DNA of 64,000 bases from an uncultured delta proteobacterium. GTDB lineage: Bacteria; Desulfobacterota; Binatia; HRBIN30; BPIQ01. Made by a program: the position numbers and the translations under genes. Where the stretch lies: positions 1,088,001-1,152,000 of the forward strand of contig CAVXGR010000018.1 in NCBI GenBank assembly GCA_963761335.1, written 5' to 3'. Of the stretch, positions 36,373 to 53,824 are shown piece by piece; within the stretch, counting starts at the first letter, position 1; each line of letters opens with the position of its first letter. Under the pieces are notes generated by a model that was not told where the DNA came from, searched no databases, and saw nothing but the letters and a program-made list of their open reading frames with translations.

Positions 36373-38784
36373 ATGATGCGGTCGCCGGCGCGAGGTGGGA
36401 AGAATACGTCGACGGCACTGGCGCGGGCGATTGCCGTGCCGTGTGTCGTCCTGCTGCAGGCGTGCGTCGTCTCCGCTGCCTGCGCGGTAGGGGGAACATC
36501 GAGCTTGCCGGCTCCGGCGAGCATCTATCTGCGCAGCTATCGCGCCTCGCTCGGCACTCCGAGCCGGGTCGCCGTCGACGACTCCGGCAACACCTATGTT
36601 GCCGATCCCGGTCTGCGGCAGGTCCTCGTGCGCGCCCCCAGCGGCCGCATTCTCTCCCGCGCAGAGAACCTCGGTCGGCCGCTCGGCATCGCCGTGGGAG
36701 ACACCGGCACGGTGTATGTCGGCGACGTCGATACGGGCAGCGTCACTGCCTTCGACGCCGACTGGCAACCACTCTTCCAGCTCGGCCAGGGGGCAGGGGA
36801 GTTCTCGAGGCCGAACGACATCGCGGTCGATGCCGCCACGGGGAACGTCTATGTCGCCGACACCGCGGCGCAGCAGATCAAGGTCTACACTGCCACCGGC
36901 TCGCTTCTCAGCAGCTTTGGCGGGCAGGGCGCGGGCGACGGGCTATTCAATTTTCCTGCAGGCGTCTACGTGGACGCGGCGGCGCGACAGGTCCTGGTCG
37001 CGGATCAGCTGAACTACCGCATTCAGATCTTCGACGTGCAGGGCAACTTTCTCTCCTGCTTCGGAGCTCAGGGGAGCAGTCCCGGCCGATTCAACATGCC
37101 GCAGGGCGTAACCGCCGACGGCCAGGGTCGGGTGTACGTCGCCGACGCGCTCGAGGGCCGCATCCAGGTGCTCGATCGCAATGGCGCCTTCCTTGGATAC
37201 GTCGGCGATTTTGGCGAGGCCGGAGGGCAGCTGCGCATTCCCACGGGACTGGCGATCGATCCGTCGAACCGGCTGTTCGTCGCCGCGGCGAACAACGCCC
37301 GCCTGGAGATCTATGGCCTGGACGCCTTCTCGGATCCGGAGACTGTACTGCCGGCAGTGGTGCGCATGCAGCCGCAGCTGATCGACAGGGCGATTCCCAA
37401 CGGCGCGGTCGCTGCCGACGTCGAGGTTCCCGGGTACACGCTCGAGCAGATCGTCCCGGGCAGCATGACCGTCAATGGCGTCGCGCCGATGAGCCCGCCC
37501 GCAATCGGCGACCGGGACAACGACGGCGTTCCGGACGTCCGCCTGGAGCTCGACCGCGCGGCGTTGCTGGCGACGCTTCCCGCCGCGGGCAGCGGCGCGA
37601 TCGCGGTCTCCGGAATGCTGGGAGAGCTGCGGCTCGAAGGTTCCGCGGCCGTGCAGGTGGCGACCTGTGCTCCGCAAACGAAGTGCCCTCTCGGCAACGC
37701 CGATCCGCAGTGCAACGACGCCGTGTGTGTCGACGGCGTCGGATGCACGGTGCAGCCGAAGACGGAAGGTAGCGGCTGTGAGGACGGCGATGCCTGTACG
37801 GTCGAGGACACCTGCAGTGCCGGAGTCTGCGCGGGCGCCGTCTTGACCTGTGACGATCTCAACCCCTGCACCGACGACAGCTGCGATGCGGTCACCGGAT
37901 GCGTGTTCTCGAACAATACAGCCGTCTGCGATGACGCCGACCCCGGCACTGTCGGCGACCTCTGCGACGGGCAGGGGCAGTGCCTCGGGCGGGTCGTCAC
38001 CGGGCGCTACGCGGTCCTCGAGAGCCCGGTCGATACCCGGAGACACAATGCCGTGTCGATCGGCCGTCGCGCTCTCATGGGCGGTGACGTCTGCGGTGAG
38101 AGTCTTCGCTTGGGATCCTTCGCGCACATCGACGGCACCGCGGTGGGTTGGGCGTCCGTGGGCAGAGCCGTGGCTCTCCACCGCAATAGCCAGGTGACCG
38201 GCGACGTGGTGACCGGCGGTGCGAGCGTGGTTTTGATGCCGCCGGCAAACATCGGCGGCCAGATCGACCAGAGCGGCACGGGCGCCGCGGTCAGCGACTG
38301 CGCCGCGGCCCGTTACCGCGCGGACAGCCGCCGCGCGGAGTGGACGGCACAGGTGCCGTCACCCGGCTACGCTCAGGGGCGGATTGCGGTGCGACGCGGA
38401 GACACCATGCGGCTGCCTTCGTCCGGAACGCTGGGAACGGGCGCGATCTTGATCGACACCGCCGGCGTCCGCCTGGGGCCGGCGAGCACGCTCACTCTGG
38501 TCGGCGATGCCTCCACGGAGACGGTGGTGGTGCGGGTTCACGGCAAGCTCTCGCTCGGCTCGGCCGCGCGTCTGGAAGCCCAGGGGGTGCCGCCGGAACG
38601 CGTTATGGTGATGGTCGATGGGCCGGTGTTCCTGCACCGCGGGGCGGCGCTCGCCGGCTCTCTCTCGGCGAGCGGCCATGTCCGGCTCGGGAACGCCAGC
38701 GCCGTCAGCGGCGCGGTGCTCGGCGATCACGTCGACGTGGCCTCGGACGCCAGGGTGACTCTTCACCCGTTCATCGGTTGGTAG
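36373..38784 (+). CDS. Secreted NHL-repeat protein with Cys-rich repeats and a C-terminal beta-rich domain
   Basis: About six NHL repeats (FxxPxGIAVD..VYVAD); CxDGDACTxxDxC repeats. Start uncertain. Confidence 0.85.
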   Translation: MMRSPARGGKNTSTALARAIAVPCVVLLQACVVSAACAVGGTSSLPAPASIYLRSYRASLGTPSRVAVDDSGNTYVADPGLRQVLVRAPSGRILSRAENLGRPLGIAVGDTGTVYVGDVDTGSVTAFDADWQPLFQLGQGAGEFSRPNDIAVDAATGNVYVADTAAQQIKVYTATGSLLSSFGGQGAGDGLFNFPAGVYVDAAARQVLVADQLNYRIQIFDVQGNFLSCFGAQGSSPGRFNMPQGVTADGQGRVYVADALEGRIQVLDRNGAFLGYVGDFGEAGGQLRIPTGLAIDPSNRLFVAAANNARLEIYGLDAFSDPETVLPAVVRMQPQLIDRAIPNGAVAADVEVPGYTLEQIVPGSMTVNGVAPMSPPAIGDRDNDGVPDVRLELDRAALLATLPAAGSGAIAVSGMLGELRLEGSAAVQVATCAPQTKCPLGNADPQCNDAVCVDGVGCTVQPKTEGSGCEDGDACTVEDTCSAGVCAGAVLTCDDLNPCTDDSCDAVTGCVFSNNTAVCDDADPGTVGDLCDGQGQCLGRVVTGRYAVLESPVDTRRHNAVSIGRRALMGGDVCGESLRLGSFAHIDGTAVGWASVGRAVALHRNSQVTGDVVTGGASVVLMPPANIGGQIDQSGTGAAVSDCAAARYRADSRRAEWTAQVPSPGYAQGRIAVRRGDTMRLPSSGTLGTGAILIDTAGVRLGPASTLTLVGDASTETVVVRVHGKLSLGSAARLEAQGVPPERVMVMVDGPVFLHRGAALAGSLSASGHVRLGNASAVSGAVLGDHVDVASDARVTLHPFIGW

Positions 38785-38790
38785 GATTGC

Positions 38791-41445
38791 GTGAGACGAG
38801 CTGCACTCCATACTCTCTCGCTGCTCTTCGGGCTGGTGTGCCTGGCTCCGGGAGGCTCCTGGGCGCTCGACCCGCCGCACGATGCCAGTCAGTCGATCGA
38901 CTGCGGCAACTGCCACATCACCCACCACGCCCCGGGAGGAGCGATCACCAAGGTCGCCGGCAACCCGAACCTGTGCATGAGCTGCCATACGCCCGGAGGG
39001 ATGGCGTCCGCGAAGCCCTTTGCCGATGCGGATGAGGCGATTCCGGGCGCCGGCGGCACTTCGCACCGATGGGACTCGGGCGCCTCGGGCTGGGTGAAGG
39101 CCGATCCGGCGAATACCTCGGCCGGCACCGTGCGGTCGAGTGGCAGCTTCAGCGGCCGCTATGCGAAGAGCTACACGATCGCCATCGAGACGCCCGGAGA
39201 GACAGGGGTTGCGACCTTCGCTTGGAGCACCTCGGCGGCGACCAGCGACACCTACCGCGACGATTTCAGCACCATCTCCTTCAGCGCCTCGAATGGGTCG
39301 CGCGACTGGAGCGGCAGTCCGTGGCAGGAGGTCGTCGAGGCGGACGGTGTCGGTGCTGGCGTCGTGCGCGTGGTCGCCAGCACGGCCTGCGCCAGTGGCA
39401 ACTGCCTGCGCATCGGCGGCGGCACCATCGACATGCGCGGCCTGCGCCGCGCCGCGGATCTGAGCGGCGCCAGCTCGGCGATGCTGACCTTCAGCTATCG
39501 CCGGCAGCTGGCAACCTGTCCCAACACCAGCACCGCCAACGTCGCCTTCGAGGTGAGTAGCGACGGAAACGCCTGGACCACCCTGGCGACCTACGACCTG
39601 AACGCCTGCGACAGCGCCCCTGTGGCGCAGGCGTTCGACGCCACGGATTTCGTGTCGCCGGCACTGCAGATCCGCTTCCGGGGGGTGGGCACCGCCGGCA
39701 CCAATGATTTCATCTACGTCGATGACGTGCAGGTCGAGGGGCTGCTCCGCGGTGAGGGAGCCACCGGGGTGCTCAGCGGCGCCGACGTGCCACTCAACGA
39801 AGGCGTCAGCCTGAGCTTCGGCAACGGCGCGGCGCCGCCGTCGTTCGATCTCGGCGATCAGTGGACGGTCTATGCCCTTCCGGACATCAACCAGCCCACA
39901 ACCCCAGCGCTCTTGGCGCGACTCGCGGGCGGCAAGATCACCTGCTCGACCTGCCACAACCAGCACAGCCAGCTCGCCGAGCCGTTCGACCCGGCCGCGC
40001 CCGCGTATCCGATGTCGGCGCCGGGCGGCGAGGGGAGGCACAACCAGAGGGTCGACAACGAGACCAACCAGATGTGCATCGATTGCCACAGCGCGCGGAG
40101 CGTGATGGCCGCGGCACAGGGGTCGCATCCCGTCGGTGTCGCGATTCCGGGCGGGCAGTACAGAGCGCCGTCGCTGCTGCCGTTGGATATCGTCAGCAAC
40201 TCCGTGCAGTGCATGTCGTGCCACCAGCTCCACGACAGCCCGACCAGCGACGGCTCGCTCGCCCGGATCGCCGATGCCACGGCGCTGTGCTCCGACTGCC
40301 ACACCCTGGCCGACACCAGCGCGCCGGCCTCGCATTTGAGCCCGTCGAGCGGCGTCCTGTGGCCGGGACCGCAGTACGGGACGCGCTTCCCGGGCATCAC
40401 CGATGCGTCGAAGAGGGGAGCCTGCACCAACTGTCATCAGCCCCACGGATGGCCCGACGGCGAAAACCCCGCAGCCGACTATCCCGCCCTGCTGGTCAAC
40501 CGGGAGGAGGGTCTCTGCTTCGCCTGCCACGACGGCAGCCCGGCGGCGACCAACGTGCTGCTGCAGTTTACCAAGAGCTACCGGCATCCGACGACGGACT
40601 ACAGCGGCCGGCACGATCCGGCGGAAGGCGGCGACGCCGCCCGCTTCGGTACCGGCAATCGCCACGCCGAGTGTGAAGATTGCCACAACCCGCACGTTGC
40701 CGGCGGCGACGGCACGGCTCCGAGCGCACCGGCGGCCTCGAGACGCATCGCCGGCGTGAGTCGCGTGGCGGTCACCAACGGCGCCGCGGCAACGGTGCCG
40801 GCATTCACCTTCCGAGGTCCACAGGACGGCACGCCCGCTTCGGAGTACGAGCTCTGCTTCAAGTGCCACTCGTCATGGACGACGCAGCCCGCCGGTCAGC
40901 CGGACATGGCGGTGAGGTTCAACACCAGCAATCCGTCGTTTCACCCGGTGGAGGCGCCGGGCAAGAACACGAACATCCGTGCCGGCGGCTTCGTTAACGG
41001 CTGGTCGGCGAGCAGCACAGTCTACTGCACGGACTGCCACACCAGCGAGGATCCCACGGTGCGCGGCCCGCACGGATCGCAGTATGCGTATCTGCTCAAG
41101 CGGCCCTTCGTTGCCAGCAGCAGCCGCCGCACCATGGCCTCGACCGAGGAGTGCTTCGACTGCCACAGCTTCAATACGTACGCCAACACGCAGAGCAGCG
41201 ACACGGTGCAAGGCTACAGCCGCTTCAACCGGCCAAGCTTCGAGGAAGGGCACTCCTTTCACGTGGTCGAGAAGCGGGCGCCGTGCTACGCCTGCCACGA
41301 CTCGCACGGCTCGGGCAGCTTGCCGCACCTGATCGTCACCGGCCGCAATCCGGGGATCAACAGCTACACGGAGACGTCGACCGGAGGCAGCTGCTCCCCG
41401 ACCTGCCACGAGCGCGAGAGCTACCGCCTCAATTACGCCCGATGA
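38791..41445 (+). CDS. Large exported multiheme cytochrome c (13 CxxCH + 1 CxxxCH)
   Basis: Signal peptide ending SWA-LDPPH; counted heme motifs; ~300 aa heme-free insert after the second heme. Confidence 0.92.
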   Translation: MRRAALHTLSLLFGLVCLAPGGSWALDPPHDASQSIDCGNCHITHHAPGGAITKVAGNPNLCMSCHTPGGMASAKPFADADEAIPGAGGTSHRWDSGASGWVKADPANTSAGTVRSSGSFSGRYAKSYTIAIETPGETGVATFAWSTSAATSDTYRDDFSTISFSASNGSRDWSGSPWQEVVEADGVGAGVVRVVASTACASGNCLRIGGGTIDMRGLRRAADLSGASSAMLTFSYRRQLATCPNTSTANVAFEVSSDGNAWTTLATYDLNACDSAPVAQAFDATDFVSPALQIRFRGVGTAGTNDFIYVDDVQVEGLLRGEGATGVLSGADVPLNEGVSLSFGNGAAPPSFDLGDQWTVYALPDINQPTTPALLARLAGGKITCSTCHNQHSQLAEPFDPAAPAYPMSAPGGEGRHNQRVDNETNQMCIDCHSARSVMAAAQGSHPVGVAIPGGQYRAPSLLPLDIVSNSVQCMSCHQLHDSPTSDGSLARIADATALCSDCHTLADTSAPASHLSPSSGVLWPGPQYGTRFPGITDASKRGACTNCHQPHGWPDGENPAADYPALLVNREEGLCFACHDGSPAATNVLLQFTKSYRHPTTDYSGRHDPAEGGDAARFGTGNRHAECEDCHNPHVAGGDGTAPSAPAASRRIAGVSRVAVTNGAAATVPAFTFRGPQDGTPASEYELCFKCHSSWTTQPAGQPDMAVRFNTSNPSFHPVEAPGKNTNIRAGGFVNGWSASSTVYCTDCHTSEDPTVRGPHGSQYAYLLKRPFVASSSRRTMASTEECFDCHSFNTYANTQSSDTVQGYSRFNRPSFEEGHSFHVVEKRAPCYACHDSHGSGSLPHLIVTGRNPGINSYTETSTGGSCSPTCHERESYRLNYAR

Positions 41446-41474: not shown

Positions 41475-42785
41475 TCAGGCGGTGCCGTACTTGGTTTCGA
41501 CCTGAACGCCGATGTCCCGGAGAAACTGGGTCGGCAGAATACCGCCGGCGCAGACGATCACGGCGTCGTTCGGCAGGATCGTGCTGGCTCCGCGCTGCTC
41601 GATGACGACGCGCTCGTCTTCGATCTCGACGACGTTCGACTCGAGCATGATGCTCAGCCTTCCGCACGCTTCGGCGCCTTGCAGGCGGTCGCGGTTCGCC
41701 TGCCGGGCGCGCGAGGTCGCCCTGCCGCGATAGGAGAGGGTCACGGTCGTCCCGGGTCGCTCCGCCAGGGCCACTGCGGCCTCGATGGCGCTGTCGCCGC
41801 CGCCGACCACGAGGACGTGCTTGCCGTCGTACTGGGCGGGATCGATCATGCGATAGACGACCTTGGGCAGGTCCTCGCCGCCGACGCCCAGCTTGCGGGG
41901 CGTGCCGCGACGGCCGATGGCCAGCAGGATGGCGCGCGTGCGGTACGATTGGCGCGAGGTGTGTACGGCGAAGACGTCGCCCTCGCGGGCGATGGACTCG
42001 ACGCGCTCGTTGTAGCGGATCCGCAGCCCGGTGCGCTGCTCGATGTCTTCCCAGAATGACAGCAGGGCTTCTTTGGTCGTCTCCCGCAGGCTGGTCTTGC
42101 CGACGATGGCGAGCTTGACGGGCGCGGTCATGACGATCTTGCCGCGCGGGTAATGGGAGACGGTGCCGCCGCGGGTCTCCTGCTCGACGGTGACGAAGCG
42201 GAGCTGCTGCTCGAGTGCGGCGAGGGAAGCGGAGATGCCCGCCGGCCCGGCGCCGACGATCAGGACGTCGAGGTCGGAGCTGTTGGAGGTGCGCCGTTGG
42301 TTGGCGATTGCGGCGATCGCCTGCCGCCCCTGTTCGGCGGCGTTGTGGATCAGCCCCATGCCGCCGAGCTCGCCGGCGATGAAGATTCCTCGGACGTTGG
42401 TCTCGAACTCCGGGCCGACCAGGGGAATGTCGACGCCGCGCCGCGCGGTGCCGAACACCAGCTCGATCGCCTTGGTCGGGCAGGCCTGCTTGCAGGCACC
42501 ATGGCCGATGCAGTGGCTGGGGTTGACGAGATGCGCCTTGCCGTCGATCACGCCGAGGACGTCGCCCTCGGGGCACGCGGCGACGCAGGAGCGACAGCCG
42601 ATGCAGTGCACCGGGTCGATGAGCGGGTGCAGGGTGGGCGGATCGGTGAGCCCCGCCTCGGTCGCCTCGCGCAGCATGCGCACGCTGCGTCGATGATGGG
42701 CGGCGCGGCGCGCCCAGTAGATGCCCCAGATCAGCGCCATGGGCGCGGCATAGGCGGCAAACCACAGAGCGTCGCTGTCCATCAT
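41475..42785 (-). CDS. Membrane-anchored ferredoxin / TrxB-like NAD(P)H-FAD oxidoreductase
   Basis: N-terminal TM; CIGCRSCVAACP and CIGHGACKQACP; GAGPAG; GGGDSA. Confidence 0.9.
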   Translation of the reverse strand: MMDSDALWFAAYAAPMALIWGIYWARRAAHHRRSVRMLREATEAGLTDPPTLHPLIDPVHCIGCRSCVAACPEGDVLGVIDGKAHLVNPSHCIGHGACKQACPTKAIELVFGTARRGVDIPLVGPEFETNVRGIFIAGELGGMGLIHNAAEQGRQAIAAIANQRRTSNSSDLDVLIVGAGPAGISASLAALEQQLRFVTVEQETRGGTVSHYPRGKIVMTAPVKLAIVGKTSLRETTKEALLSFWEDIEQRTGLRIRYNERVESIAREGDVFAVHTSRQSYRTRAILLAIGRRGTPRKLGVGGEDLPKVVYRMIDPAQYDGKHVLVVGGGDSAIEAAVALAERPGTTVTLSYRGRATSRARQANRDRLQGAEACGRLSIMLESNVVEIEDERVVIEQRGASTILPNDAVIVCAGGILPTQFLRDIGVQVETKYGTA

Positions 42786-43065
42786 CGCAGCGCGGGATAC
42801 TTCCAGAAGATCGTCCCGAGTCAAGACGATTGCGAGGGCGAACCGCAGAGGAAGAAGAGAGAAGAAATGAAAGGACGCAGAGAGATAGAGCGGTAGAGGA
42901 GGCGTCCTGCAAGTTTCTGCAGAAGGGTGATGGCGGACCGCGCAAATTCTTGCCGTACGCGGGCGTGTCGCGCGGCGCTCACCGGATGCATCGTTGGAAT
43001 CCCGGTTGCGGGCACAGCGATTGCTGCGCAATGACCTCTCGGTGGCCGGAAGCGGAAGATCAACA

Positions 43066-43977
43066 ATGGTTGTCGAAGCAGCTCCCCGGATGAAACGGCT
43101 GCCGCTGCTGGCGCTGCCGGCCACGCGCGCGGCGCGGGTGCGCCGCTCGGGTACGGCACTGCGGGTCGCCGTGCTCGTCCTCTCGACGGTCGCCTGCGGT
43201 TGGCTGCTGCGCGACCGCATCCCGCTCACGCCCAAATCGGGTCCCGGCTACGGGCTCGGCATTGCGGGCGGAGTCACCATGCTGGTTCTCGGGCTCTATC
43301 CGGCGCGCAAGAACCTGCGATTCATGCGCAGCTGGGGCCGGCTGAGCGAGTGGTTCCACATCCACATGATTCTCGGAGTGGTGGGGCCGCTGCTCATCCT
43401 GTTCCACTGTGATTTTCACCTGGGAGCGCCGAACAGCAGCGTGGCGCTCGCCTCGATGCTGTTGGTGGCGACCAGCGGCGTCATCGGCCGCTACATCTAT
43501 ACCCACATCAACCACGGCCTCTACGGCGCGCGCGCGACGCTCGAGGAGCTCCACCAGCAGCTCGACCTGAGCGCCCATACGCTCGGCGATCTGCTGCCGC
43601 CGGCGTCGCGCGCCTCTCAGCGGCTGGCCGCGTTTGCGGCGCGGGCGCAGGCGCCGCAGCGGACGATCGCCGGGCGCTTCGTCCGGGTTGCCGGTCTGCC
43701 GCTGCTCGCCCGCCTGGAGCACGGCCGCGTGCGTCGCGATCTGCGCGCCGACCTCGACGCCGAGGCGGGGCGCAGCGGCTGGGATGCGCGGGCGCGGCGC
43801 ACCGCCGAGGAAACGATCGGCGAGATGATCGCCTCGTACATCGCCGCTCTGGTCAAGGAGGTGCAGTTCAGCGCCTACCAGCGCCTGGCCTCCCTCTGGC
43901 ATGCCGTTCACGTGCCGCTCTTCATCATGCTGATCCTCACGGCCATCGTGCACGTCATCGCCGTGCACATGTACTGA
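43066..43977 (+). CDS. His-rich polytopic membrane protein (putative heme b / ferric-reductase-like TM)
   Basis: WFHIHMILG, LFH, SGVIGRYIY, LWHAVHVP..IVHVIAVH. Start uncertain. Confidence 0.8.
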   Translation: MVVEAAPRMKRLPLLALPATRAARVRRSGTALRVAVLVLSTVACGWLLRDRIPLTPKSGPGYGLGIAGGVTMLVLGLYPARKNLRFMRSWGRLSEWFHIHMILGVVGPLLILFHCDFHLGAPNSSVALASMLLVATSGVIGRYIYTHINHGLYGARATLEELHQQLDLSAHTLGDLLPPASRASQRLAAFAARAQAPQRTIAGRFVRVAGLPLLARLEHGRVRRDLRADLDAEAGRSGWDARARRTAEETIGEMIASYIAALVKEVQFSAYQRLASLWHAVHVPLFIMLILTAIVHVIAVHMY

Positions 43978-45514: not shown

Positions 45515-46627
45515 GTGAATCGGTCATCGACAAACCTGGCGCGGCGTCCCCCGGGGCGGCGCGATGTGTGGCGTCTTGCGTGCCTCGCTCTTCTCCTGGC
45601 GCTCGGCGGTTGCGCCGCCAGCGCCAAGGTCCCGGAGGTCTTCTGGCCGGATCCTCCGGATCCGCCGCGGATCAAGTACCTGGGCAGCGTGCAGTCGCGG
45701 AGCGACGTCGGCGGCCACTCGTGGCGCGAGGTGCTGGTCGGCGCCGACAAGGCGAGGGCGCTCTATCAGCCGATGGGGATCGCGCTGTCTGCGGACAAAC
45801 AGCGGCTCTACGTCGCCGATCGCGCCTGGAACCTGGTGTTCGTCTTCGATCTGAACGGCGGCGGCGTGCGCACCATCGGCGACCAGGAGCGATATCCCCT
45901 TACCTGGCCGGTGGGCGTGGCCCTGGACGCTCGGGAAAACGTCTACGTCACCGATACCGGCAGCCACTCGGTGCGCGTGTACGACAAGAGCGGTACCTTC
46001 CTGCGCGGCATCGGCAAGGAGGCGCTGGTGCGGCCGACCGGAATCGCCGTGGATACGGTACGCGGGCGTCTGTACGTGGTCGATACCGGCCGGAAGGACG
46101 GCGACGGGGCGCACCGGGTGAAGGTCTTCGATCTCGAGGGGCACCTGCAGCAGGAGATCGGGCACCGCGGTGATGGGGATGGGGAGTTCAACTTTCCCAC
46201 GTTCGCGAGCCTGGACGCCGAAGGCCGGCTGTACGTCGTCGATTCGGTCAACAACCGCATCGAGGTGTTCGACTCCAGCGGAAAGTTTCTCTGGAAGTTC
46301 GGGCGCGGCGGCGACCAGATCGGTGATTTCGCGCGGCCCAAGGGCGTCGCCGTCGATACCTTCGGCAACATCTACGTGGTCGACTCGCGCTGGAGCAACG
46401 TGCAGGTGTTCAACCAGCGCGGTCAGCTGCTGATGATCTTTGCCGGCGTCGGCACGTATCCCGGCTTGCTGATCAATCCGACTGCGATCGCGATCGACGG
46501 CGACAACCGGATCTACGTCGCCGACACGCTGGGGAAGCGCGTCAGCATGTACCAGCTGGTGAACACCACGGCGGCGGACAGCACGGGATCGGGCGACGCA
46601 GCTGCGAATGCGGGCAGAGGGGGTTGA
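45515..46627 (+). CDS. NHL-repeat lipoprotein
   Basis: Lipobox LGGC; WPDPPDPPRI; NHL repeats; GGAG RBS before GTG. Confidence 0.88.
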   Translation: MNRSSTNLARRPPGRRDVWRLACLALLLALGGCAASAKVPEVFWPDPPDPPRIKYLGSVQSRSDVGGHSWREVLVGADKARALYQPMGIALSADKQRLYVADRAWNLVFVFDLNGGGVRTIGDQERYPLTWPVGVALDARENVYVTDTGSHSVRVYDKSGTFLRGIGKEALVRPTGIAVDTVRGRLYVVDTGRKDGDGAHRVKVFDLEGHLQQEIGHRGDGDGEFNFPTFASLDAEGRLYVVDSVNNRIEVFDSSGKFLWKFGRGGDQIGDFARPKGVAVDTFGNIYVVDSRWSNVQVFNQRGQLLMIFAGVGTYPGLLINPTAIAIDGDNRIYVADTLGKRVSMYQLVNTTAADSTGSGDAAANAGRGG

Positions 46628-46731
46628 GTGTTTTGTCGGACGAGGCCGGAGAAGGGAGAGCGAGTGAGATGAAGTGGGGCATGAGCGCAAGCTCGAAACG
46701 TACGGGACATTTGCGGCGAGGAGGTCATGTC

Positions 46732-47382
46732 ATGAGGAGGCAGTTGGTTCTTGCGGCCGCTCTGGTTGTGGCGGTGGGAAGCAGTGCATTCGGGGCCTCG
46801 ATGTCCGGGGGAATGCACGATCTGAGCTCGACGTCGTCGGGACCGAACAAGTCCAATTCGCAGACACAGCTGTGCGCCTTCTGCCACGTCCCTCACAACA
46901 GCCTGCCGGCGGTGTCGCGCCCTCTGTGGAGCCACACCATGACGGCACAGAACCTGACCTGGGCACCGGCGACCACGGTGCGCGGCACGACCCTGCCGAC
47001 GTCGATCACCGGTACGGCGCTGGCGGGCTCGCGCGCCTGCATGAGCTGTCACGACGGCACGGTGGCGCTCGGCGATCTGCTCAACGGCTCGGGCGGCACG
47101 GTCAGCGGTCCGAACGTGACTGCCGGCAAGCTGAGCGGCGGCCCCAACTTCCTCAATCCGGCGGCGATGGAGTCCAACCATCCCCTGGGGGTGACGCAGC
47201 CGGCGAACGTGGCCGGGTTCACCGGGTTCAAGACGGTCCCGGCCAGCAGCGCCGTCAACTACGACGCCTCGGGCTACGTGCAGTGCGGCTCCTGCCACAA
47301 TCCGCACGACGACACCAATGTGCCTTTCCTGAAGATCAACAACACGGGCAGTGCGATCTGCGTGACCTGCCACGACCTGTAG
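46732..47382 (+). CDS. Tetraheme cytochrome c, OmcE-like
   Basis: Signal peptide; HDLSS..CAFCHVPH..PLW..CMSCHDG..NHP..CGSCHNPH..PFL..CVTCH; AGGAGG RBS. Confidence 0.88.
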   Translation: MRRQLVLAAALVVAVGSSAFGASMSGGMHDLSSTSSGPNKSNSQTQLCAFCHVPHNSLPAVSRPLWSHTMTAQNLTWAPATTVRGTTLPTSITGTALAGSRACMSCHDGTVALGDLLNGSGGTVSGPNVTAGKLSGGPNFLNPAAMESNHPLGVTQPANVAGFTGFKTVPASSAVNYDASGYVQCGSCHNPHDDTNVPFLKINNTGSAICVTCHDL

Positions 47383-47451
47383 TCGAGTGGAGGTGGCGAG
47401 GAGGCCGAGTCGGGCCTCTTCGCCACCGCGGAAATCCTGTGGGCTGAGGTG

Positions 47452-47778
47452 ATGGAGCGTCGGGTACGGCTCGCGTCTGCGGTGTTCTTCGCCCTCCTGC
47501 TGGCGATCTCTTGTCTCCCTTCCCGGGGAGGCGAGCTGGGGGACGTGGTCTACTCGCGGGCGACCGGGACGCAGGAGTTTCCGCCGGCGTACTTTCCGCA
47601 TTGGGTTCACCGCATCAAATACAAGTGCTACGCCTGCCACGACGGCCTATTTCCGATGCGCCACACGGCCAATCCGACGATGGATTCCATGTCGAAGGGG
47701 GAGTCGTGCGGCGTCTGTCACAACGGCAAGCTCGCCTTCGGCGTGGATATGTGCCAGCGCTGCCATGTCCGGCAGTGA
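47452..47778 (+). CDS. c7-type triheme cytochrome
   Basis: FPHWVH..CYACH..CGVCHNGKLAF..CQRCH. Confidence 0.9.
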   Translation: MERRVRLASAVFFALLLAISCLPSRGGELGDVVYSRATGTQEFPPAYFPHWVHRIKYKCYACHDGLFPMRHTANPTMDSMSKGESCGVCHNGKLAFGVDMCQRCHVRQ

Positions 47779-49010
47779 GCTCCGGGGGGCGCCGGGCCGG
47801 CGTGCTGTGGGCGCTGCTGGTCGCCACCAGCTTGGCGGGCTGTAGCCCCGAGAGCCGCCAGCGGACACTCGTCTTCCTCTTTGAAGACGTGCCCTCGCCG
47901 GACGCCGCGCCCGGCACCACGCCGCTGGTGCGGCGGCCGCGACGTCCGCCGCCGCCCACCGCCGCGCCGACGCCGACGCCGGCGTTCCTGCAGACGGAGG
48001 CGGAGAGATCCGCGGCGCTGCGGACCTGGGATGACGTCGCGAGGCGCCTGCCGAAAGATCCGCTGGGAAATCCCGATTGGTCGCGGGCCCTGGAGCAGGG
48101 CATCATCGCGCCGCGGCCTGGCATCGAGCCGCGGGCAGAGGAGCAAGCGGTACTGGCCCTCGACGTCGAGATCTCCCGGCCCGGGGACTCGGCGCTGGCC
48201 GTCGTCTTCTCGCACCGGAAGCACGGCGAATGGCTCTCCTGCGACAACTGTCACACCGCTCTGTTCGCGATGAAGTCCGGGGAGACGTCGATGGCCGCCG
48301 GCGAGGCTCACGGAGAGCGGCGCTGCGGCGCCTGTCACGGGAAGGTGGCCTTCGACGTGGTCAGTGGTTGCCCCCTGTGTCACCTGCGCACCTTTCCCAA
48401 GGACGCGCAGGGGCAGGTCGATTGGAACCGCGCCCTTGCGGAGTCGCGCATCGTGCCGGGCAGCGGCCCGAGAAGCGCGGTCGCGCCGGTGCCCATCCTG
48501 GATCTCGACGTCGCCCTCGAGGCCGCGCAGCCGACGTTCAGCTCGGTGTTCTCACACCGGGCGCACACGCAATGGCTCAGCTGTGGCAGCTGCCACCCGC
48601 GACCGTTTCCCCAGGAGGCCGGGGGACTGAACGGGGCAGACCTGCATTCTCGAGAGTACTGCGGCGCCTGTCACGGGTCGGTCGCCTTCGGGCTCACCGG
48701 TGCCTGCGAGCGCTGCCATCCGGCCTTTCGCAAGGAAAAGCATCACAATGCGTCCCTGGATCTCGACGTCGAGATCACCCCGAAGGCCTCGCCATCGACG
48801 ACGAGGACGGTCTTCTCGCACAAGATCCACACACCCTGGGTAGAGTGCTCCGTCTGCCACTCCGACGTGTACGCGCCGACGGCGCCGGCGGAGCGCCCGG
48901 CGATGGCCGACCTCTATACGGGCAAGTACTGCGCCAGCTGTCACGGAAAGATCGCCTCTGAGCTCACCGCGCGTTGCCAGCCGTGCCATGTCGCCGGGGA
49001 CGCCAGGTGA
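47775..49010 (+). CDS. Nonaheme lipoprotein cytochrome with three c7-type domains
   Basis: Lipobox LAGC; three FSHxxH + 3xCxxCH modules; GTGA overlap with the upstream gene. Confidence 0.88.
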   Translation: MSSGGRRAGVLWALLVATSLAGCSPESRQRTLVFLFEDVPSPDAAPGTTPLVRRPRRPPPPTAAPTPTPAFLQTEAERSAALRTWDDVARRLPKDPLGNPDWSRALEQGIIAPRPGIEPRAEEQAVLALDVEISRPGDSALAVVFSHRKHGEWLSCDNCHTALFAMKSGETSMAAGEAHGERRCGACHGKVAFDVVSGCPLCHLRTFPKDAQGQVDWNRALAESRIVPGSGPRSAVAPVPILDLDVALEAAQPTFSSVFSHRAHTQWLSCGSCHPRPFPQEAGGLNGADLHSREYCGACHGSVAFGLTGACERCHPAFRKEKHHNASLDLDVEITPKASPSTTRTVFSHKIHTPWVECSVCHSDVYAPTAPAERPAMADLYTGKYCASCHGKIASELTARCQPCHVAGDAR

Positions 49011-51034
49011 AGCGATGGCGCGCCAGCGCGGCGGGCACGAGAGCAATCGCGCTCGGCTTTGCCGGGGCGGCCCTGGTTCTCTGTATGGCAACTCGGACCC
49101 ATGCTCAGGCGCGCTGGGGGCTCGGGCGGTGGCAAGGCGACGGCATCTTCTTTCTCGACTGGGAGAAGCAGGACGACAAGCGCTCGCAGAGCAAGTACGA
49201 GACGATTCTGTTTCAGGAGCGGCTGCGCCTCCGCAACCTCGGCGCTTTCCTCGTCGATCCGCGCTTCTTCAGATTCAACCTGGGCGGGTCCTTCGGGCTG
49301 TCGCAGGAGGAGGGCATCGCCGCCAGCGACAACCCACTGCGCGTCGGCAACGGCACTCTCTACGATTACGCGTTCGACGGCGTGTTTCTCGGCGACCGGC
49401 CGTATCCGGTCACGGTCTTCGCCAACCGCAGCGAGAGCATCCTGACGCAGGGCTTCGGCGGCCGCGCCGACGTGCGCTTCGAGAGCCGTGGGGGAACCTT
49501 CGAGCTGCGCGAGGGCAGCTTTCTCGAGCGCCGCGGCATTCGCCACTTCACCTCCGTTCTCGACGTTCGCCAGGAGCTGCTCAACGAGGACTCCTCGGTG
49601 TTCGGCAGCCCCTTCCTCCGCGACGAGACCCGCAACGTCGTCCGCTACGGCGCCCACAAAGGCGGTGAGAGCTCCGACATGGACCTGCGCTACGAGCTCG
49701 ACGACGTCAGCGATCCGATCAACCTCGCCGACAACTTTCAGAGCCATACGGTGCGTGCCGTACACAGCCTCGACTTCGGCGCGCGGCTCAATCGGCGCCT
49801 GGACTCGGTTCTCTATTACTTCACCCGTTCCGGTGTCGGCCCGAGCAGCTATCTTTCCTTCGACGAAGGCCTGCGCATCGACCACAGTGCCAATCTGGCC
49901 AGCAATCTCCGCTACGACTTCTCGCGGAGCGACTCCAGCGTCGGCGTGACCACGACCAACTCCGGAAGCGCGAGTGTGCGCCATCAGCTGTACGGTCACC
50001 TGACGACCACCATCGATGGCAGAGGCCTGCGCCAGGACTTTCCCAACGGCGCCAAGACGATCTACGGCGGCCAGGCCGGTGCCGCCTATCGCCGCTCCCT
50101 GCCGGGACAGGGCGAGCTCTCCGCGCAGACGTACGTCGGTTACCAGGTGGACGACAACGCCTTCACCTCCTCCCGGGTCGACGTCGTGGACGAGCCGCAC
50201 GCGGCGCCGCCGTTGCTCGGCGCGGGCGCCGGATTCACGCTCGCCAACCCTTTCGTCATGAGCGACACCGTCGTGGTGGTCGACGTCCGCGGAGGGGCGC
50301 GGTTGCCGACGGTGCTCAACCTCGATTACATCCTCACGCAGGAGGGCAGTCTGACGAGAGTCGTTCCCCTCGCCGGCAGCCCGGTGATTCGCCCGGACGA
50401 CCCCCTCGAGGTGAGCTACGCGTACTCGGTCGACCCCGGCCTCGAGTACTCGACCGCGACGCTGAGCGCCAGAACCGGGATCGACTATCGCTGGTTCGGA
50501 CTCAGCTACCAGCACGTGCTCAGTGACCAGACGCGCCTGTCCGGTGCAGCCACGCCGCAGTTCCTCATCGATCAGAACGTGGACGATTTCTCCCTCGAGC
50601 TGCGCCATCAGTGGAACGCGGTGCGGGGGCAGTCGACCGTGGCCTACGAGATCTTCAACTCGACGATCGTCGACTCGCGCTCCTGGCGCTTCAGCCAGCT
50701 GCTCTCCTACCAGCCGCGATTCGACCTCAACGCGCAGCTCAGCGGCGATCAGGACCTGATCGACTATCCGAATGAGAACCGGCGCTCGGAGTCGTACCTG
50801 GTGCGCGCCACCGTCGACTGGCTCACGCCGATAGGGCCGAGCTTGGCGCCCTTCGCCGGCTATCGCTCTTATCGGGACACCGGCACGCAGCGCGACGAGA
50901 TCCTCGACTTCGGCGTGCGCCTGCGCTGGACCTTCCGCAACCTGGAAATCTCCCAGAGCTTCTCCTGGGCGGACTATCGGAGACGGCTGAATGACGTTCG
51001 CGCTCAGCTGCAGATCACGCGGCGCTTCTTCTGA
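49007..51034 (+). CDS. Outer-membrane beta-barrel protein (porin-cytochrome type)
   Basis: Signal peptide; alternating amphipathic aromatic-rich strands; C-terminal Phe; overlaps the cytochrome stop. Confidence 0.78.
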   Translation: MKRWRASAAGTRAIALGFAGAALVLCMATRTHAQARWGLGRWQGDGIFFLDWEKQDDKRSQSKYETILFQERLRLRNLGAFLVDPRFFRFNLGGSFGLSQEEGIAASDNPLRVGNGTLYDYAFDGVFLGDRPYPVTVFANRSESILTQGFGGRADVRFESRGGTFELREGSFLERRGIRHFTSVLDVRQELLNEDSSVFGSPFLRDETRNVVRYGAHKGGESSDMDLRYELDDVSDPINLADNFQSHTVRAVHSLDFGARLNRRLDSVLYYFTRSGVGPSSYLSFDEGLRIDHSANLASNLRYDFSRSDSSVGVTTTNSGSASVRHQLYGHLTTTIDGRGLRQDFPNGAKTIYGGQAGAAYRRSLPGQGELSAQTYVGYQVDDNAFTSSRVDVVDEPHAAPPLLGAGAGFTLANPFVMSDTVVVVDVRGGARLPTVLNLDYILTQEGSLTRVVPLAGSPVIRPDDPLEVSYAYSVDPGLEYSTATLSARTGIDYRWFGLSYQHVLSDQTRLSGAATPQFLIDQNVDDFSLELRHQWNAVRGQSTVAYEIFNSTIVDSRSWRFSQLLSYQPRFDLNAQLSGDQDLIDYPNENRRSESYLVRATVDWLTPIGPSLAPFAGYRSYRDTGTQRDEILDFGVRLRWTFRNLEISQSFSWADYRRRLNDVRAQLQITRRFF

Positions 51035-52091
51035 CCGGCGCGCGGCCCCCGCACTCCGGCGGCGTGCAACGCAGTGGGGGAGGCACGTTCTCCTCCCCCT
51101 GCTCTGCGTGCTGGTCACCGGATGCGGCTGGGCGCGAGGCGATGCGCGGCAATCGCAGTCGATCCCGCCGATGGTGTGGCCCGCGGCGCCCAGCGAGCCG
51201 CGCATCGAGCTGCTCTCGCTCTTCGCGCGCGGCGCGGATCTCGGCATCGAGCCCTCCATCTGGGCGCGTCTCGCGAGCCTGGTCACCGGAGGAGGCGAGC
51301 CGCGCCTGGTGCGTCCCACCGGCGTGGCGGCATCGGGCGCACGCGTCGCGGTCGCCGATCCCGGCGCCGGGGTGGTGCAGGTCTATGATCTGGCGGAGCG
51401 GCGTGCCCTTGCCCTCGGCCGCTGCGGTGATGCCGCGCTCGTCGAGCCGGTGTCCGTCGCCTTCCTCGCCGGCCACATCTATGTCTCCGACGCCGCAGCG
51501 TCGCGCATCGACGCATTCGACGGGGACGGTGCCTGCACGGGTGGCTGGCGATTGGCGCCGGGCTCGCGTCCGGCGGGGCTGGCCGCAGACGAGCAACGGG
51601 GGCGTCTGTACGTGGCCGATGCCGGCGCGCACCAGGTGCTCGCCTTCGATCCCCAAGGGACGGAGATCCTTCGCTTCGGGAGGCGCGGTGCCGGGGCGGG
51701 CGAGTTCAACTACCCGACGTGGATTGCCGTCGACGGTGCCGGCCACCTCTACGTCACCGATGCCCTGAACTTTCGCGTGCAGTCATTCGACGAGAGCGGC
51801 AAGGCGCTCGGCCGCTTCGGCGGGCAGGGAGACGGCTCCGGCGATCTGGCGCGCCCGAAGGGAATCGCCGTCGACGGCGGCGGCCACATCTTCCTGGTCG
51901 ACGCGCTCTTCGACGCCGTGCAGATGTTCGATGGCGAGGGCCGCTATCTGATGGTGTTCGGCGAGCGCGGCCGCGGGGCCGGACACTTCTGGCTGCCGTC
52001 CGGCGTGGCGGTGGCCGGAGACCGCATCTACGTGGCCGACTCGTACAATCAGAGGGTGCAGGTGTTTCGCTTTCTCGGGGGAGCCTCGTGA
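50991..52091 (+). CDS. NHL-repeat lipoprotein
   Basis: Lipobox VTGC; WPAAPSEPRI; NHL repeats (FNYPTWIAVD, ARPKGIAVD). Start uncertain. Confidence 0.85.
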   Translation: MTFALSCRSRGASSDRRAAPALRRRATQWGRHVLLPLLCVLVTGCGWARGDARQSQSIPPMVWPAAPSEPRIELLSLFARGADLGIEPSIWARLASLVTGGGEPRLVRPTGVAASGARVAVADPGAGVVQVYDLAERRALALGRCGDAALVEPVSVAFLAGHIYVSDAAASRIDAFDGDGACTGGWRLAPGSRPAGLAADEQRGRLYVADAGAHQVLAFDPQGTEILRFGRRGAGAGEFNYPTWIAVDGAGHLYVTDALNFRVQSFDESGKALGRFGGQGDGSGDLARPKGIAVDGGGHIFLVDALFDAVQMFDGEGRYLMVFGERGRGAGHFWLPSGVAVAGDRIYVADSYNQRVQVFRFLGGAS

Positions 52092-53824
52092 GGCGTTCCG
52101 CTCTCTCGGCTTTGCCGATGGCGGTCTCGATTCTCGCCGCTACCGCGGTCGCCTCGGCGGGACTGCGCGAGACCGTGCACAACCTCAGCCCCGGAGGCGT
52201 CGGCCGGCAGCAACGGAGTCTGCAGGGGGGCGGCGGCGGCGGCGCGGCGATGGCCGACGGCGATCTCTGCGTCTTCTGCCATACGCCACACAGCGCCGAG
52301 GGGCGCCGCGGCTTGTGGAACCGCGCCGTCCAGCCTCTGCGCTACAAGCTCTACGAGAGCAGCACCGCGGAAGCGGAGATGCAGCAACCGACCGGGAGCT
52401 CGCGGCTGTGTCTCTCCTGCCACGACGGAATGATCGCGGTTGGAGCGCTCAAGCATCACGGCGATCCGACGCTCGGCAAGCTGAGCGGCGCCGCCGACCT
52501 CGGTACCGACCTCTCGGACGACCACCCGATCTCGTTCGTCTACGACCAGGCCCTGGTGACGCGAAGGCGGGACCTGGCGAATCCGCGCGCCCTGACCGGC
52601 AGCGTCAAGCTCGACGAGTCCGGTCAGATGCAGTGCACCTCCTGCCACGATGCGCATCTCGATCGCTACCCCAAGTTCCTGGTGATGGATCCATCCTACT
52701 CGGCCTTGTGCGTCACCTGTCACCGGCTGCCCCACTGGCAGGAGTCGGGGCATGCGACCTCGGCGGCATCGGCGCCGGCAAGCGCCGTCCCCGGGCTCGG
52801 CTACGCGACCGTGGGCCAGAACGGCTGCTCGAGCTGCCATCAGTCGCACGGGGCAAAGCACCCGCAGCGCCTGCTGGCGGCGGCGACCGAAGAGGGGGTG
52901 TGTCTGGACTGTCACGATGGCAGCGTGGCCGCCACCGACGTGCGGCGGGAGTCAATGAAGTACAGTGCCCATCGGGTTGACCGCTACGCCGGCGTCCATG
53001 ATCCCACCGAGAATCCCAACACCATGGCGGAGCACGTGGAGTGCGTCGACTGCCACGACGCGCATCAGGCATCGGCGGAGTCGGCGCCGGGCCAGCTTGC
53101 CGGGCCGCTCCGGGGCGTGTCGGGTGTCAGCATCGGCGGCAGCTTCTTGCGCGAGGCCAGCTTCGAGTACGAGGTCTGCCTGAAGTGTCACGGCATCAGC
53201 GAGGCGCGCGACCCGCTCGTCTTTCGCGCCGATCAGGTGACCAATGCGCGGCTGGAGCTCGATCCGCAGAACGCCTCTTTTCACCCGCTCGCCGACCTCG
53301 GCAGGAATCCCGGCATCGTCGGTTTGATTCCGCCACTGACGGCCGCCAGCCGCCTTTCGTGTACCAGCTGTCACGACGACGATACCTCGCGGCGGAGCGG
53401 CAGCACCGCTCCCCGGGGGCCGCACGGCTCGAGCTATCGGCCGATCCTCGCTGCCGAGTACCGCACCGAGGCGACCGCGGCGCCGGAGTCCTACCAGCGC
53501 TATGCGCTCTGCTACGGCTGCCATGACCGCAACACGCTGCTGAACCGACCCGGCGGCTTCCCGCACCGGCTGCACGTGAGCGACGCCGGCGCCAGCTGCG
53601 CCGTCTGCCACGACGCCCACGGCTCGCGGCGCAACGCCCACCTGATCAACTTCATGAGCCGCGATCTCACCGGCGAGGTGGCGGTCACGCCGTCGAGCTC
53701 GGGACGGCTGGAGTACGTCTCTCTGGGAGCCGACGCCGGTCGCTGCTTTCTCACTTGCCACGGCAGCGATCACGAGGGCACGGAGTACTCGGTGGCGACG
53801 GTAGCCACTGCGGGGCGCCGCTGA
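52088..53824 (+). CDS. Multiheme cytochrome c (11 CxxCH + 1 CxxxCH) with OmcE-like N-terminal domain
   Basis: HNLS..CVFCHTPH..LWNR..CLSCHDG..LGTDLSDDHPI..CTSCHDAH..CVTCH, followed by eight more motifs. Confidence 0.9.
   Translation: MRRSALSALPMAVSILAATAVASAGLRETVHNLSPGGVGRQQRSLQGGGGGGAAMADGDLCVFCHTPHSAEGRRGLWNRAVQPLRYKLYESSTAEAEMQQPTGSSRLCLSCHDGMIAVGALKHHGDPTLGKLSGAADLGTDLSDDHPISFVYDQALVTRRRDLANPRALTGSVKLDESGQMQCTSCHDAHLDRYPKFLVMDPSYSALCVTCHRLPHWQESGHATSAASAPASAVPGLGYATVGQNGCSSCHQSHGAKHPQRLLAAATEEGVCLDCHDGSVAATDVRRESMKYSAHRVDRYAGVHDPTENPNTMAEHVECVDCHDAHQASAESAPGQLAGPLRGVSGVSIGGSFLREASFEYEVCLKCHGISEARDPLVFRADQVTNARLELDPQNASFHPLADLGRNPGIVGLIPPLTAASRLSCTSCHDDDTSRRSGSTAPRGPHGSSYRPILAAEYRTEATAAPESYQRYALCYGCHDRNTLLNRPGGFPHRLHVSDAGASCAVCHDAHGSRRNAHLINFMSRDLTGEVAVTPSSSGRLEYVSLGADAGRCFLTCHGSDHEGTEYSVATVATAGRR

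Follow-up and report, generated by a model that had tools for sequence, protein, structure and literature searches.

The stretch of DNA considered here, a window of 64,000 nucleotides from the genome of an uncultured delta proteobacterium of the class Binatia (contig CAVXGR010000018.1 of GenBank assembly GCA_963761335.1), holds at positions 36373-53824 a run of twelve adjacent genes, called g1 to g12, that may together encode a path for electrons from the cytoplasm to the outside of the cell. In the reading that we prefer, and to which we give a probability of about 0.5, the locus is a conduit of three modules in which electrons from NAD(P)H would flow through the flavoprotein g3, the membrane protein g4 and the multiheme cytochrome g5 to an outer module, in the outward direction and independently of quinones. 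The locus combines the inner half of a PCC3-type system with an outer module of the omcE/Uet type; these modules have already been described, but are functionally untried. The transcription units are g1-g2 (plus strand), g3 (minus strand) and g4-g12 (plus strand), and since g3 lies on the minus strand the twelve genes do not form one operon.

The inner module

The gene g3 (41475-42785, minus strand) is predicted from Pfam and PDB matches and from alignment to encode a membrane-anchored cytoplasmic iron-sulfur (Fe-S) flavoprotein of 436 amino acids (aa). Its N-terminus carries one transmembrane (TM) helix followed by RRAAHHRR, and the start at 42785 is the most likely one, since relatives align only from there and eight orthologs have lengths of 434-439 aa. 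The first-pass annotation had described a TM-ferredoxin-flavoprotein; its two Fer4 motifs and Pyr_redox_3 domain are indeed present, but on the minus strand and behind a single TM helix instead of a TM domain of about 200 aa. That longer form was rejected, as the 150 codons upstream are not conserved in any relative. The Pfam matches are to Pyr_redox_3 (E 4e-40) and Fer4_10 (E 9e-12). The first Fe-S motif reads CxxCxxCxxxCP and the second, at residues 92-102, CxxHxxCxxxCP, with a His that is invariant in 30 orthologs; the cluster that ends the wire and would face g4 may thus be a His-ligated [4Fe-4S] or a [3Fe-4S] cluster.

The flavin domain of g3 has the two-Rossmann FAD/NAD(P)H fold of the thioredoxin reductase (TrxR)/YpdA type. 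It is closest to YpdA/Bdr (PDB 7a7b, E 2e-24), thioredoxin reductases and ferredoxin-NADP reductases (FNR) of the TrxR type, the FNR entries in the PDB being 3ab1 (E 2e-12) and 3lzw (E 2e-8), and the dinucleotide motifs GxGxxG and GGGDSA are invariant in the alignment. A role as YpdA-like bacillithiol-disulfide reductase or thioredoxin reductase was ruled out because the redox-active Cys is missing: the protein has no CxxC, reads GAGPAG where YpdA has GGGPCG (Cys to Ala), and among 30 sequences has no invariant Cys beyond the Fe-S motifs. The NCBIfam scores are far under the cut-off (155 vs 340). Given the lack of a redox Cys, the retention of both Rossmann motifs and the resemblance to FNR, the most fitting reading of g3 is that of a membrane-tethered protein in which a ferredoxin is joined to an NAD(P)H flavoprotein of FNR-like type.

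The adjacent gene g4 (43066-43977) encodes a protein of 303 aa with five TM helices that, according to alignment, a structure model made with AlphaFold 2 (AF2) and the published motif definition, belongs to the inner-membrane proteins (IMPs) of the PCC3 type. In the accessible text of He et al. (2017; PMC5566968) the IMP of PCC3 and PCC4 is defined as a protein of about 300 aa with five TM helices, of which TM4 bears SGXXG and TM3 and TM5 each bear WX3HX13H. Every element of this definition is found in g4, as W96x3H100x13H114 on TM3, S137G138xxG141 on TM4 and W278x3H282x13H296 on TM5. H100, H114, S137, G138, G141, W278, H282 and H296 are invariant across 30 sequences of the family, with W96 kept in 90% or more of these. 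In the AF2 model (pLDDT 84) five helices span the membrane, and the last two of them are separated by a helical domain of about 125 residues, which alignment and model indicate to be cytoplasmic and Arg-rich. TM3 and TM5 run parallel, the His residues of each pair are 14 positions apart, and positive residues lie on the N-terminus and the loops between TM2 and TM3 and between TM4 and TM5. The protein is thus predicted to be a transmembrane electron carrier with two b hemes.

The g4 family is large and poorly annotated: more than 400 environmental homologs are all labelled hypothetical, none with a Pfam domain, and at least 581 relatives occur in species genomes. No match of g4 itself to Pfam or NCBIfam was found, and a permissive Pfam scan of 30 relatives gave scattered weak matches, with PF01794 in none of the 30 at E <= 1. 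Foldseek comparison of the model with the PDB gave no match at E <= 0.001, and in a wide VIA fold search the best Z of 11, to an ABC transporter and generic helical chains, was under the bar for helical proteins. Weaker, partial matches to the IMP profile, covering the first four helices, were seen in genomes G036, G038, G043, G046, G047, G037, G029, G004 and G023, which points to a larger superfamily that includes shorter or divergent IMP paralogs. A weakly g4-like protein of 405 aa (locus L014, 8221-9438) is encoded divergently from a g3 ortholog.

Directly behind g4 lies g5 (44025-45371), predicted to be a periplasmic 18-heme polymer of c7-type units, with 18 CxxCH motifs and four stretches that match Cytochrome_C7 (E 1e-23). 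Homologs with 39-61% identity follow the IMP gene in loci L009, L011, L013 and L015-L018, and by its similarity and position g5 is classed as the periplasmic multiheme cytochrome of a PCC3-type system. A repetitive cytochrome of this kind after the IMP is part of the PCC3 description, with 21-27 hemes in the accessible published text as compared to 18 in g5.

The association of the three genes was examined in the 80 IMP loci that rank highest by similarity to g4 among at least 581 in named species genomes, so that the sample is not a random one. When a g3 ortholog is defined by a score above 300 bits to the g3 profile within the fetched flank, 67 of the 80 loci have such a gene close to the IMP. 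It lies upstream in divergent orientation, within less than 1.5 kb, in 51 of them, upstream at a distance of 1.6-4.7 kb in 12, and downstream in four. A cytochrome with at least 15 hemes directly follows the IMP gene in 77 loci, and the other three reach the end of the contig. Among the cytochromes next to the IMP, 18 hemes are found in 10 of the 80 loci, 21 in 32 and 24 in 25, and 27 hemes also occur; the second cytochrome of typical IMP loci resembles g5, not g2. In the reverse test, with 11 loci of g3 orthologs, a g4 homolog was adjoining in nine, the weakly g4-like gene mentioned above was present in L014, and L012 had none. These neighbourhoods argue that g3, g4 and g5, the trio of flavoprotein, TM protein and multiheme cytochrome for which the first-pass annotation had proposed a search for conserved synteny, are a conserved unit. 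Prediction of a complex of g3 and g4 with two hemes and two [4Fe-4S] clusters gave a score of 0.48, as compared to 0.52 for one control with an unrelated partner.

The flavoprotein is outside the published four-gene definition of PCC3. The main text of PMC5566968 mentions no FAD, pyridine nucleotide, thioredoxin or 4Fe-4S, and its text supplements no FAD, pyridine, thioredoxin, ferredoxin or NAD, and in the accessible parts of two later PCC3 papers the cluster is described as four genes only. FAD is likewise absent from the PCC3 papers listed in a literature search. The g3 family includes a protein labelled Methyloterricola oryzae, and Sideroxydans isolates are among the bacteria that have PCC3. 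A partnership of g3 with the PCC3 IMP thus appears to be absent from the literature, bioRxiv supplements aside.

The outer module

The genes g6 to g12 resemble the omcE and Uet clusters. The first, g6, encodes an NHL beta-propeller lipoprotein (45566-46627, with 45515 as the other possible start; lipobox LGGC, NHL E 2e-29) that is similar to UetH/I. It is followed by the OmcE-like, UetA-like tetraheme cytochrome g7 (46732-47382), of which the ATG is preceded by GAGGAGG. The protein carries four CxxCH motifs and matches OmcE of Geobacter sulfurreducens (PDB 7tfs, E 1.4e-21, query positions 42-250 with chain positions 10-230) and of Desulfuromonas soudanensis (PDB 9yuq, E 7e-20). Judged by these alignments it is a true OmcE homolog, and it is presumed to be a filament subunit. 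The next two genes encode cytochromes with c7-type triheme domains: g8 (47449-47778) is a predicted periplasmic protein with three hemes, similar to UetD/E/G (TIGR04257 nanowire_3heme, E 1e-21), and g9 (47802-49010) a lipoprotein (lipobox LAGC) with three such domains and nine hemes (TIGR04257 in three stretches, E 2e-46).

The gene g10 (49007-51034) encodes a UetC-like protein with a C-terminal Phe, for which no match to Pfam or NCBIfam was found and of which the family of 67 members is without Pfam assignment. Whether this segment folds as a barrel had been singled out earlier as a decisive check. The AF2 model, based on an alignment of 36 sequences, has about 30 long beta strands at a mean pLDDT of 85.5, and Foldseek gave a probability of 1.00 to MtrB, FimD, LptD and TonB receptors, the best TM-score being that to MtrB (6r2q_B, TMq 0.44, 8% identity). 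According to the model, the protein folds as an outer-membrane beta-barrel. The most conserved stretch of the family, at residues of about 400-475 (VVDEPH...GAGAGFTL...VVVDVRGG.RLPT), is modelled as an insert of short strands with pLDDT 71-80, and this insert could be a plug or docking domain. Behind the barrel gene follows g11 (50991-52091), which encodes another NHL beta-propeller lipoprotein (lipobox VTGC, NHL E 2e-30).

The last gene, g12 (52088-53824), encodes a UetJ-like cytochrome with 12 hemes (11 CxxCH and one CxxxCH), which consists of an OmcE-like tetraheme domain and a part with eight hemes. Residues 6-209 align with full-length OmcE (PDB 7tfs, E 3.6e-20), and in a BLASTP comparison g12 and g7 have 28% identity (E 6e-21), sharing four heme motifs and an N-terminal H-[DN]-L-S. 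Pfam and NCBIfam further indicate doubled-CXXCH and MtrC-like parts, and a weak match to HmcA (E 4e-5) is far under the cut-off. A homolog of g12 is found in 23 of 28 barrel loci, and of the remainder four stop at a contig edge. The OmcE-like domain is present in every one of the 23 (E 4e-16 to 5e-29), and 22 of them have 11 CxxCH motifs. In locus L133 a second g7 stands after the barrel in the place of g11-g12. The shared domain makes g12 a candidate for the anchor, base or tip of a filament, and in clusters of this type the candidate belongs to the core genes. That proteins of the UetJ/g12 family contain an OmcE-like domain appears to be unreported.

These 28 loci, collected around g10-type barrels in named genomes, come from Binatia, Burkholderiales, Thiohalobacter, Acidiferrobacterales and others, and the order g6-g7-(g9,g8)-g10-g11-g12 is kept among them. 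A g6 gene accompanies the barrel in 22 loci and g11 follows it in 24. The OmcE-like gene, present as a single copy in the window, is duplicated in tandem in L015 (7019-8388), L017 (11735-13053), L123 and L130.

The pair g1-g2 and the joining of the modules

Two further genes precede the flavoprotein gene. The first, g1 (36373-38784, with ATG at 36373), encodes a predicted secreted NHL beta-propeller protein of about 800 aa (NHL E 2e-29, four stretches), of which the middle part is Cys-rich and the C-terminal part resembles a beta-helix. The second, g2 (38791-41445), encodes a cytochrome with 14 hemes (13 CxxCH and one CxxxCH) and a non-heme insert of about 250 aa, in which Pfam recognizes doubled-CXXCH parts and parts similar to domain II/IV of MtrC/F; comparison with PDB sequences gave no match. 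In the window, L110 and L111 g2 is a single open reading frame (ORF) of 884 aa, and in L106, L107, L109 and L113 its place is taken by a 4-heme and a 9-heme ORF. In loci of the Binatia type g1 is always paired with g2, and the pair follows g5 in L015-L017, L110 and L113. In L015-L017 it is flanked by g5 and g6 and runs in the same direction; in the window it stands upstream of g3 and converges on it. Judged by gene order, the position in the window is a local rearrangement.

The joining of the modules recurs in other lineages. All twelve genes are collinear (g3 | g4 g5 g1 g2 g6 g7...g12) in genomes G016, G020 and G032, at 46-75% protein identity, and these genomes belong to two other families of the taxonomic order of the host. 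Because the fusion is conserved there, the gene order argues that the modules work together in that lineage.

Proposed electron path and its alternatives

The electron path that we infer, with its cofactors, the contact between g3 and g4, the direction of flow, the localisation of the proteins, the role of g12 and the formation of a filament, would run as follows. The FAD of g3 would take a hydride from NAD(P)H, and single electrons would pass through two Fe-S clusters to the cytoplasm-side heme b of g4 (His100/His282), then to the second heme b (His114/His296) and on to the 18-heme g5, in a NOX-like manner that would bypass the quinone pool. The c7-type triheme proteins g8 and g9, of which the latter is a lipoprotein, may hand the electrons to g12. 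The eight-heme part of g12 would reside in or at the barrel g10 and be kept in place by the two NHL lipoproteins, g6 and g11. The OmcE-like domain of g12 would serve as nucleus or anchor for a filament built of g7, and g1-g2 could be a lineage-specific accessory at the surface. The net role of the system would be to let an aerobic heterotroph shed electrons of NAD(P)H onto extracellular acceptors when oxygen is short. The joint claim that PCC3 IMPs with g3 constitute a widespread quinone-independent NAD(P)H:cytochrome c oxidoreductase, and that g12 is the base or tip subunit of a filament, can be put forward tentatively; we rather doubt that both parts hold.

Several observations weigh against this path. 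As far as is known, the characterised Gram-negative entry points into extracellular electron transfer (EET) all use quinol (CymA, ImcH, CbcL), and the locus could similarly be a conduit fed from the quinone pool, with g4 as a quinol-oxidising di-heme cytochrome b and g3 as an NAD(P)H:quinone-type dehydrogenase or a separate, co-regulated enzyme. Of the 75 IMP loci that could be evaluated for g3 (the other five of the 80 have less than 2 kb of upstream flank), eight lack it although their upstream flank extends for 2.6 kb or more. Five of these, of the Nitrospira type (L065, L069, L075, L076 and L089), have a divergent gene for an 18-43-heme cytochrome upstream of the IMP instead, so that this membrane protein is wired differently there, and from these eight loci it appears that the IMP can work without g3. 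The idea of a quinone-reactive PCC3 IMP with two b hemes is already in print (PMC5566968, accessible text), and two of 30 g4-family members match Ni_hydr_CYTB weakly (best E 6e-5). However, a pure quinol oxidase would have no role for the large Arg-rich cytoplasmic domain of g4, a quinone-site motif is not known for the g4 family, and g3 has its own membrane anchor and Fe-S wire and is encoded divergently beside g4 in 51 of 80 loci. We therefore consider feeding from quinones rather unlikely.

The direction of flow can be questioned as well, since electrons from Fe(II), minerals or partner cells could enter by way of the filament and the barrel and be passed by g4 and g3 to NAD(P)+ or to some other acceptor in the cytoplasm. 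The labels of most carriers in the 80 IMP loci are those of sulfur- or iron-oxidiser lineages, and many read Thiobacillus, Acidiferrobacterales, Thiohalomonadaceae or Nitrospira. In the accessible literature both PCC3 and Uet are proposed to serve electron uptake in lithoautotrophs, PCC3 for oxidation of Fe(II), with upregulation of the IMP gene during Fe(II) oxidation in Sideroxydans CL21, and Uet for cathode oxidation in Tenderiales (10.1101/2022.05.06.490989). On the other hand, transfer from extracellular Fe(II) to NAD(P)+ (about -320 mV, a textbook value) would be uphill and against the inside-negative membrane potential, and no energy-coupling part is visible in the locus. The host has no RuBisCO match and has catabolic genes on the flanks, and OmcE filaments in Desulfuromonadia serve export according to the accessible text of PMC13712944. 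Inward flow thus seems decidedly improbable, and on these thermodynamic grounds the earlier proposal that the locus may operate in either direction is unlikely. Outward flow, as in the preferred reading, would be favoured by textbook potentials, the inside-negative membrane potential and a heterotrophic, oxidase-rich and RuBisCO-free host. The genome has four COX1-family genes, and no match to the RuBisCO large subunit was found in it at 99% completeness, which fits a heterotroph that exports electrons.

A different function is suggested by L012, where a g3 ortholog lies beside genes (1703-8958) that by size, order and N-terminal sequence resemble ccmA/B/E/F, and where no IMP or multiheme gene is present on the contig of 11 kb. 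This also counts against the conduit, as g3 and g4 could be a reductase for maturation or maintenance, outside the main respiratory path, that delivers low-potential electrons to the periplasm and so keeps heme iron or apocytochrome cysteines reduced during the assembly of very heme-rich cytochromes. The regular presence of a cytochrome with 15-27 hemes after the IMP would fit such a task, and the uet region also holds ccsAB in the accessible description. It has to be set against this that the host has 21 other ORFs with at least three heme motifs but only one g4. The DsbD/CcdA and CcmF routes, moreover, suffice in other organisms rich in multiheme cytochromes, and we regard a maturation role as very improbable.

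Finally, the coupling of the modules is not universal. The order survey covered 52 genomes, including G029 without a strong match; a strong g4 was found in six, a strong g10 in ten and both on one contig in five. G001, G022, G048, G051 and G038 have the outer module but no strong g4, and a strong g4 with the trio occurs without the barrel in G005; G001 and G002, which are of the same family as the host, lack the trio. Among the barrel loci outside the Binatia-type set, which is the set that bears g1-g2, none of 20 has the trio within its flank. Conversely, no g10 profile score above 100 bits was obtained in the 80 IMP loci, the best being 100 bits in L092, an IMP locus of a Rhodocyclales metagenome-assembled genome (MAG) with weak barrel and OmcE-like neighbours. 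By this distribution the inner and outer modules are separable. The term self-contained in the first-pass annotation was consequently too strong, as the sub-modules occur separately in related genomes, which is one part of what it had itself named as a refutation. The synteny that it proposed to look for between the trio and the OmcE-like, barrel and NHL genes is borne out by the three collinear genomes but not by the 20 other barrel loci.

The patchy distribution, the shift of g1-g2 in the window relative to its relatives and an IS110 transposase 8 kb downstream would also be compatible with a circumstantial neighbourhood, an island of independent multiheme modules brought together by transfer and rearrangement. 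Against this, the same order of twelve genes in two other families at 46-75% identity points to selection on the linkage, and the G+C content of the cluster is the same as that of its flanks, so that we give mere adjacency the slightest of chances.

Gene calls, genomic context and host

Reading frames were picked by G+C at the third codon position, in a window with 68% (65-72%) G+C, and the twelve genes were delimited from these ORF calls and from Pfam and NCBIfam scans. Motif counts per ORF gave 13 CxxCH and one CxxxCH for 38791-41445, 18 motifs for 44025-45371, four for 46624-47382, three for 47449-47778, nine for 47511-49010, and 11 CxxCH and one CxxxCH for 51719-53824. The sum over the six cytochromes is 58 CxxCH and two CxxxCH. 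The ORFs 36334-38784, 44939-46627 and 50991-52091 match NHL (Pfam PF01436, each with E of about 1e-29). The inventory given in the first-pass annotation, with twelve adjacent genes and six cytochromes of 14, 18, 4, 3, 9 and 12 motifs, proved exact, and the three NHL proteins, the barrel and the His-rich membrane protein were recovered from their domains, the g10 model and the invariant His pairs in two helices of g4. Its statement that the locus has a part for every compartment is also supported, and all parts were found at the positions assigned to them.

The divergent genes g3 and g4 are separated by an intergenic region, delimited by the gene starts (42786-43065), that is presumed to be a shared regulatory region; no promoter consensus above chance was found in it. 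A scan for promoters and terminators stayed at chance level (1 found as compared to 1.2 expected, and 4 found as compared to 5.9 expected). The flanks encode an aromatic-ring hydroxylase, a short-chain dehydrogenase/reductase, a glyoxalase/dioxygenase-superfamily protein, an acyl-CoA thioesterase, Lnt and an enoyl-CoA hydratase. An ATPase of the type II secretion/type IV pilus type (T2SSE, E 1e-40) is encoded on the minus strand at 30001-31512, 5 kb upstream of g1, and the IS110-family transposase mentioned above is encoded on the plus strand at 61913-63346, 8 kb downstream of g12.

The named relatives closest to the host are MAGs that carry the label Candidatus Binatia or 'Deltaproteobacteria', and the NCBI phylum for Binatia is Candidatus Binatota. 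The host genome comprises 6.26 Mb in 29 contigs. It is rich in multiheme cytochromes, with 27 ORFs that have at least three heme motifs, 21 of them away from the locus. The genes on the flanks are indeed aromatic and lipid catabolic, as stated earlier, but the genome as a whole has this number of cytochromes. A second multiheme cluster (G000:C21:224377-246664) has ORFs with 10, 7, 4, 6, 7 and 11 heme motifs. According to the accessible text of PMC11264602, Binatia are known as aerobic methylotrophs and alkane degraders, and a literature search that combined Binatia with multiheme cytochromes or EET found no publication treating EET in this class. Among sequencing runs with the region 41475-47400 no RNA run is listed; the DNA runs listed are four soil metagenomes of a single study, which contain no more than 0.30 of its words.

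Relation to known systems

The first-pass annotation compared the locus with the porin-cytochrome complexes and the ImcH/CbcL route of Geobacter, and closer counterparts are PCC3 (PMC5566968) and the Uet and omcE clusters. With the omcE cluster of Desulfuromonadia the outer module shares an OmcE homolog, g7, the homology of which extends over the full length. The inclusion rule for omcE clusters in the accessible text of Petersen et al. (2026; PMC13712944) asks for a large beta-barrel and beta-propeller lipoproteins, and these are represented by g10, g6 and g11. That text lists five phyla for OmcE homologs, the host class not being among them, and states no tip-like candidate in omcE operons; here g12 carries an OmcE-like domain. 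The cluster in the window differs in that it is not followed by a block of glycosylation genes and is linked to an inner-membrane module.

The uetABCDEFGHIJ genes were described for Candidatus Tenderia electrophaga and other Tenderiales (10.1101/2022.05.06.490989; PMC9900912). By the accessible published descriptions, which are the sole basis of this comparison, UetA corresponds to g7, UetC to g10, UetD/E/G to g8 and g9, UetH/I to g6 and g11, and the undecaheme doubled-CXXCH protein UetJ to g12 with its 11 CxxCH. The peptidyl-prolyl isomerase UetB and the cupredoxin UetF are without counterpart, and none of the twelve proteins has a peptidyl-prolyl isomerase or cupredoxin Pfam domain. In those descriptions Uet is proposed to take up electrons that feed cbb3 oxidases. 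As compared to PCC3, the porin and the extracellular cytochrome with 10-63 hemes are replaced in the window by g1-g2 and the omcE/Uet module.

The predicted path through the inner membrane is similar to that of NOX and ferric reductases (FRE), in which electrons go from NAD(P)H via a flavin and two b hemes, held by HX13H pairs of two helices, to an acceptor across the membrane. The likeness of the IMP motif to NOX/ferric reductase was already pointed out in the accessible text of PMC5566968. The nearest atlas clusters of g4 were automatically named 'ferric reductase like', which is a lead only. Membership of the NOX/FRE family (PF01794) is contradicted by its absence from all 30 g4-family members and by the presence of five helices instead of six. 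Furthermore, the flavin domain is here a separate chain of TrxR fold with two Fe-S clusters, not a fused domain of FNR fold, and the acceptor would be a multiheme cytochrome c.

The Hmc and Tmc complexes of sulfate reducers are built on the same principle, with a many-heme cytochrome c in the periplasm, a cytochrome b in the membrane and an Fe-S protein in the cytoplasm. Their protein families differ from those of the locus, and their HdrD-like cytoplasmic partner has no flavin/NAD(P)H domain. The resemblance to MtrAB and Geobacter Pcc, in which a decaheme of the MtrA/DmsE type or an octaheme of the OmaB type is threaded through a porin of the MtrB/OmbB type, does not amount to membership: matches to the DmsE family TIGR03508 reach 52-70 bits as compared to a cut-off of 192, and MtrB is similar to g10 in its general barrel fold only. 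An EET cluster from a Methylobacter bioanode (PMC13322032) was rejected as comparator, since it is an unrelated cluster of the MtrAB type.

Implications

To our knowledge, every characterised route by which Gram-negative bacteria export respiratory electrons starts at the quinone pool. If the proposed path is correct, the locus would provide the first quinone-independent entry point into a Gram-negative EET chain, and a conserved flavoprotein partner would alter the reading of PCC3 in iron oxidisers, which is now modelled as quinone-linked. The clusters named 'Uet' and 'omcE' have the same gene content, and the OmcE-like domain in UetJ and g12 bears on the question of how filaments are anchored or capped that is posed in the accessible text of PMC13712944. 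The locus also places a complete candidate EET chain in the Binatia, a class of soil and sediment bacteria, and would in this way extend the range of hosts. If both parts of the joint claim were true, soil bacteria of the Binatia could have a direct electrical connection from NAD(P)H to minerals or to neighbouring cells.

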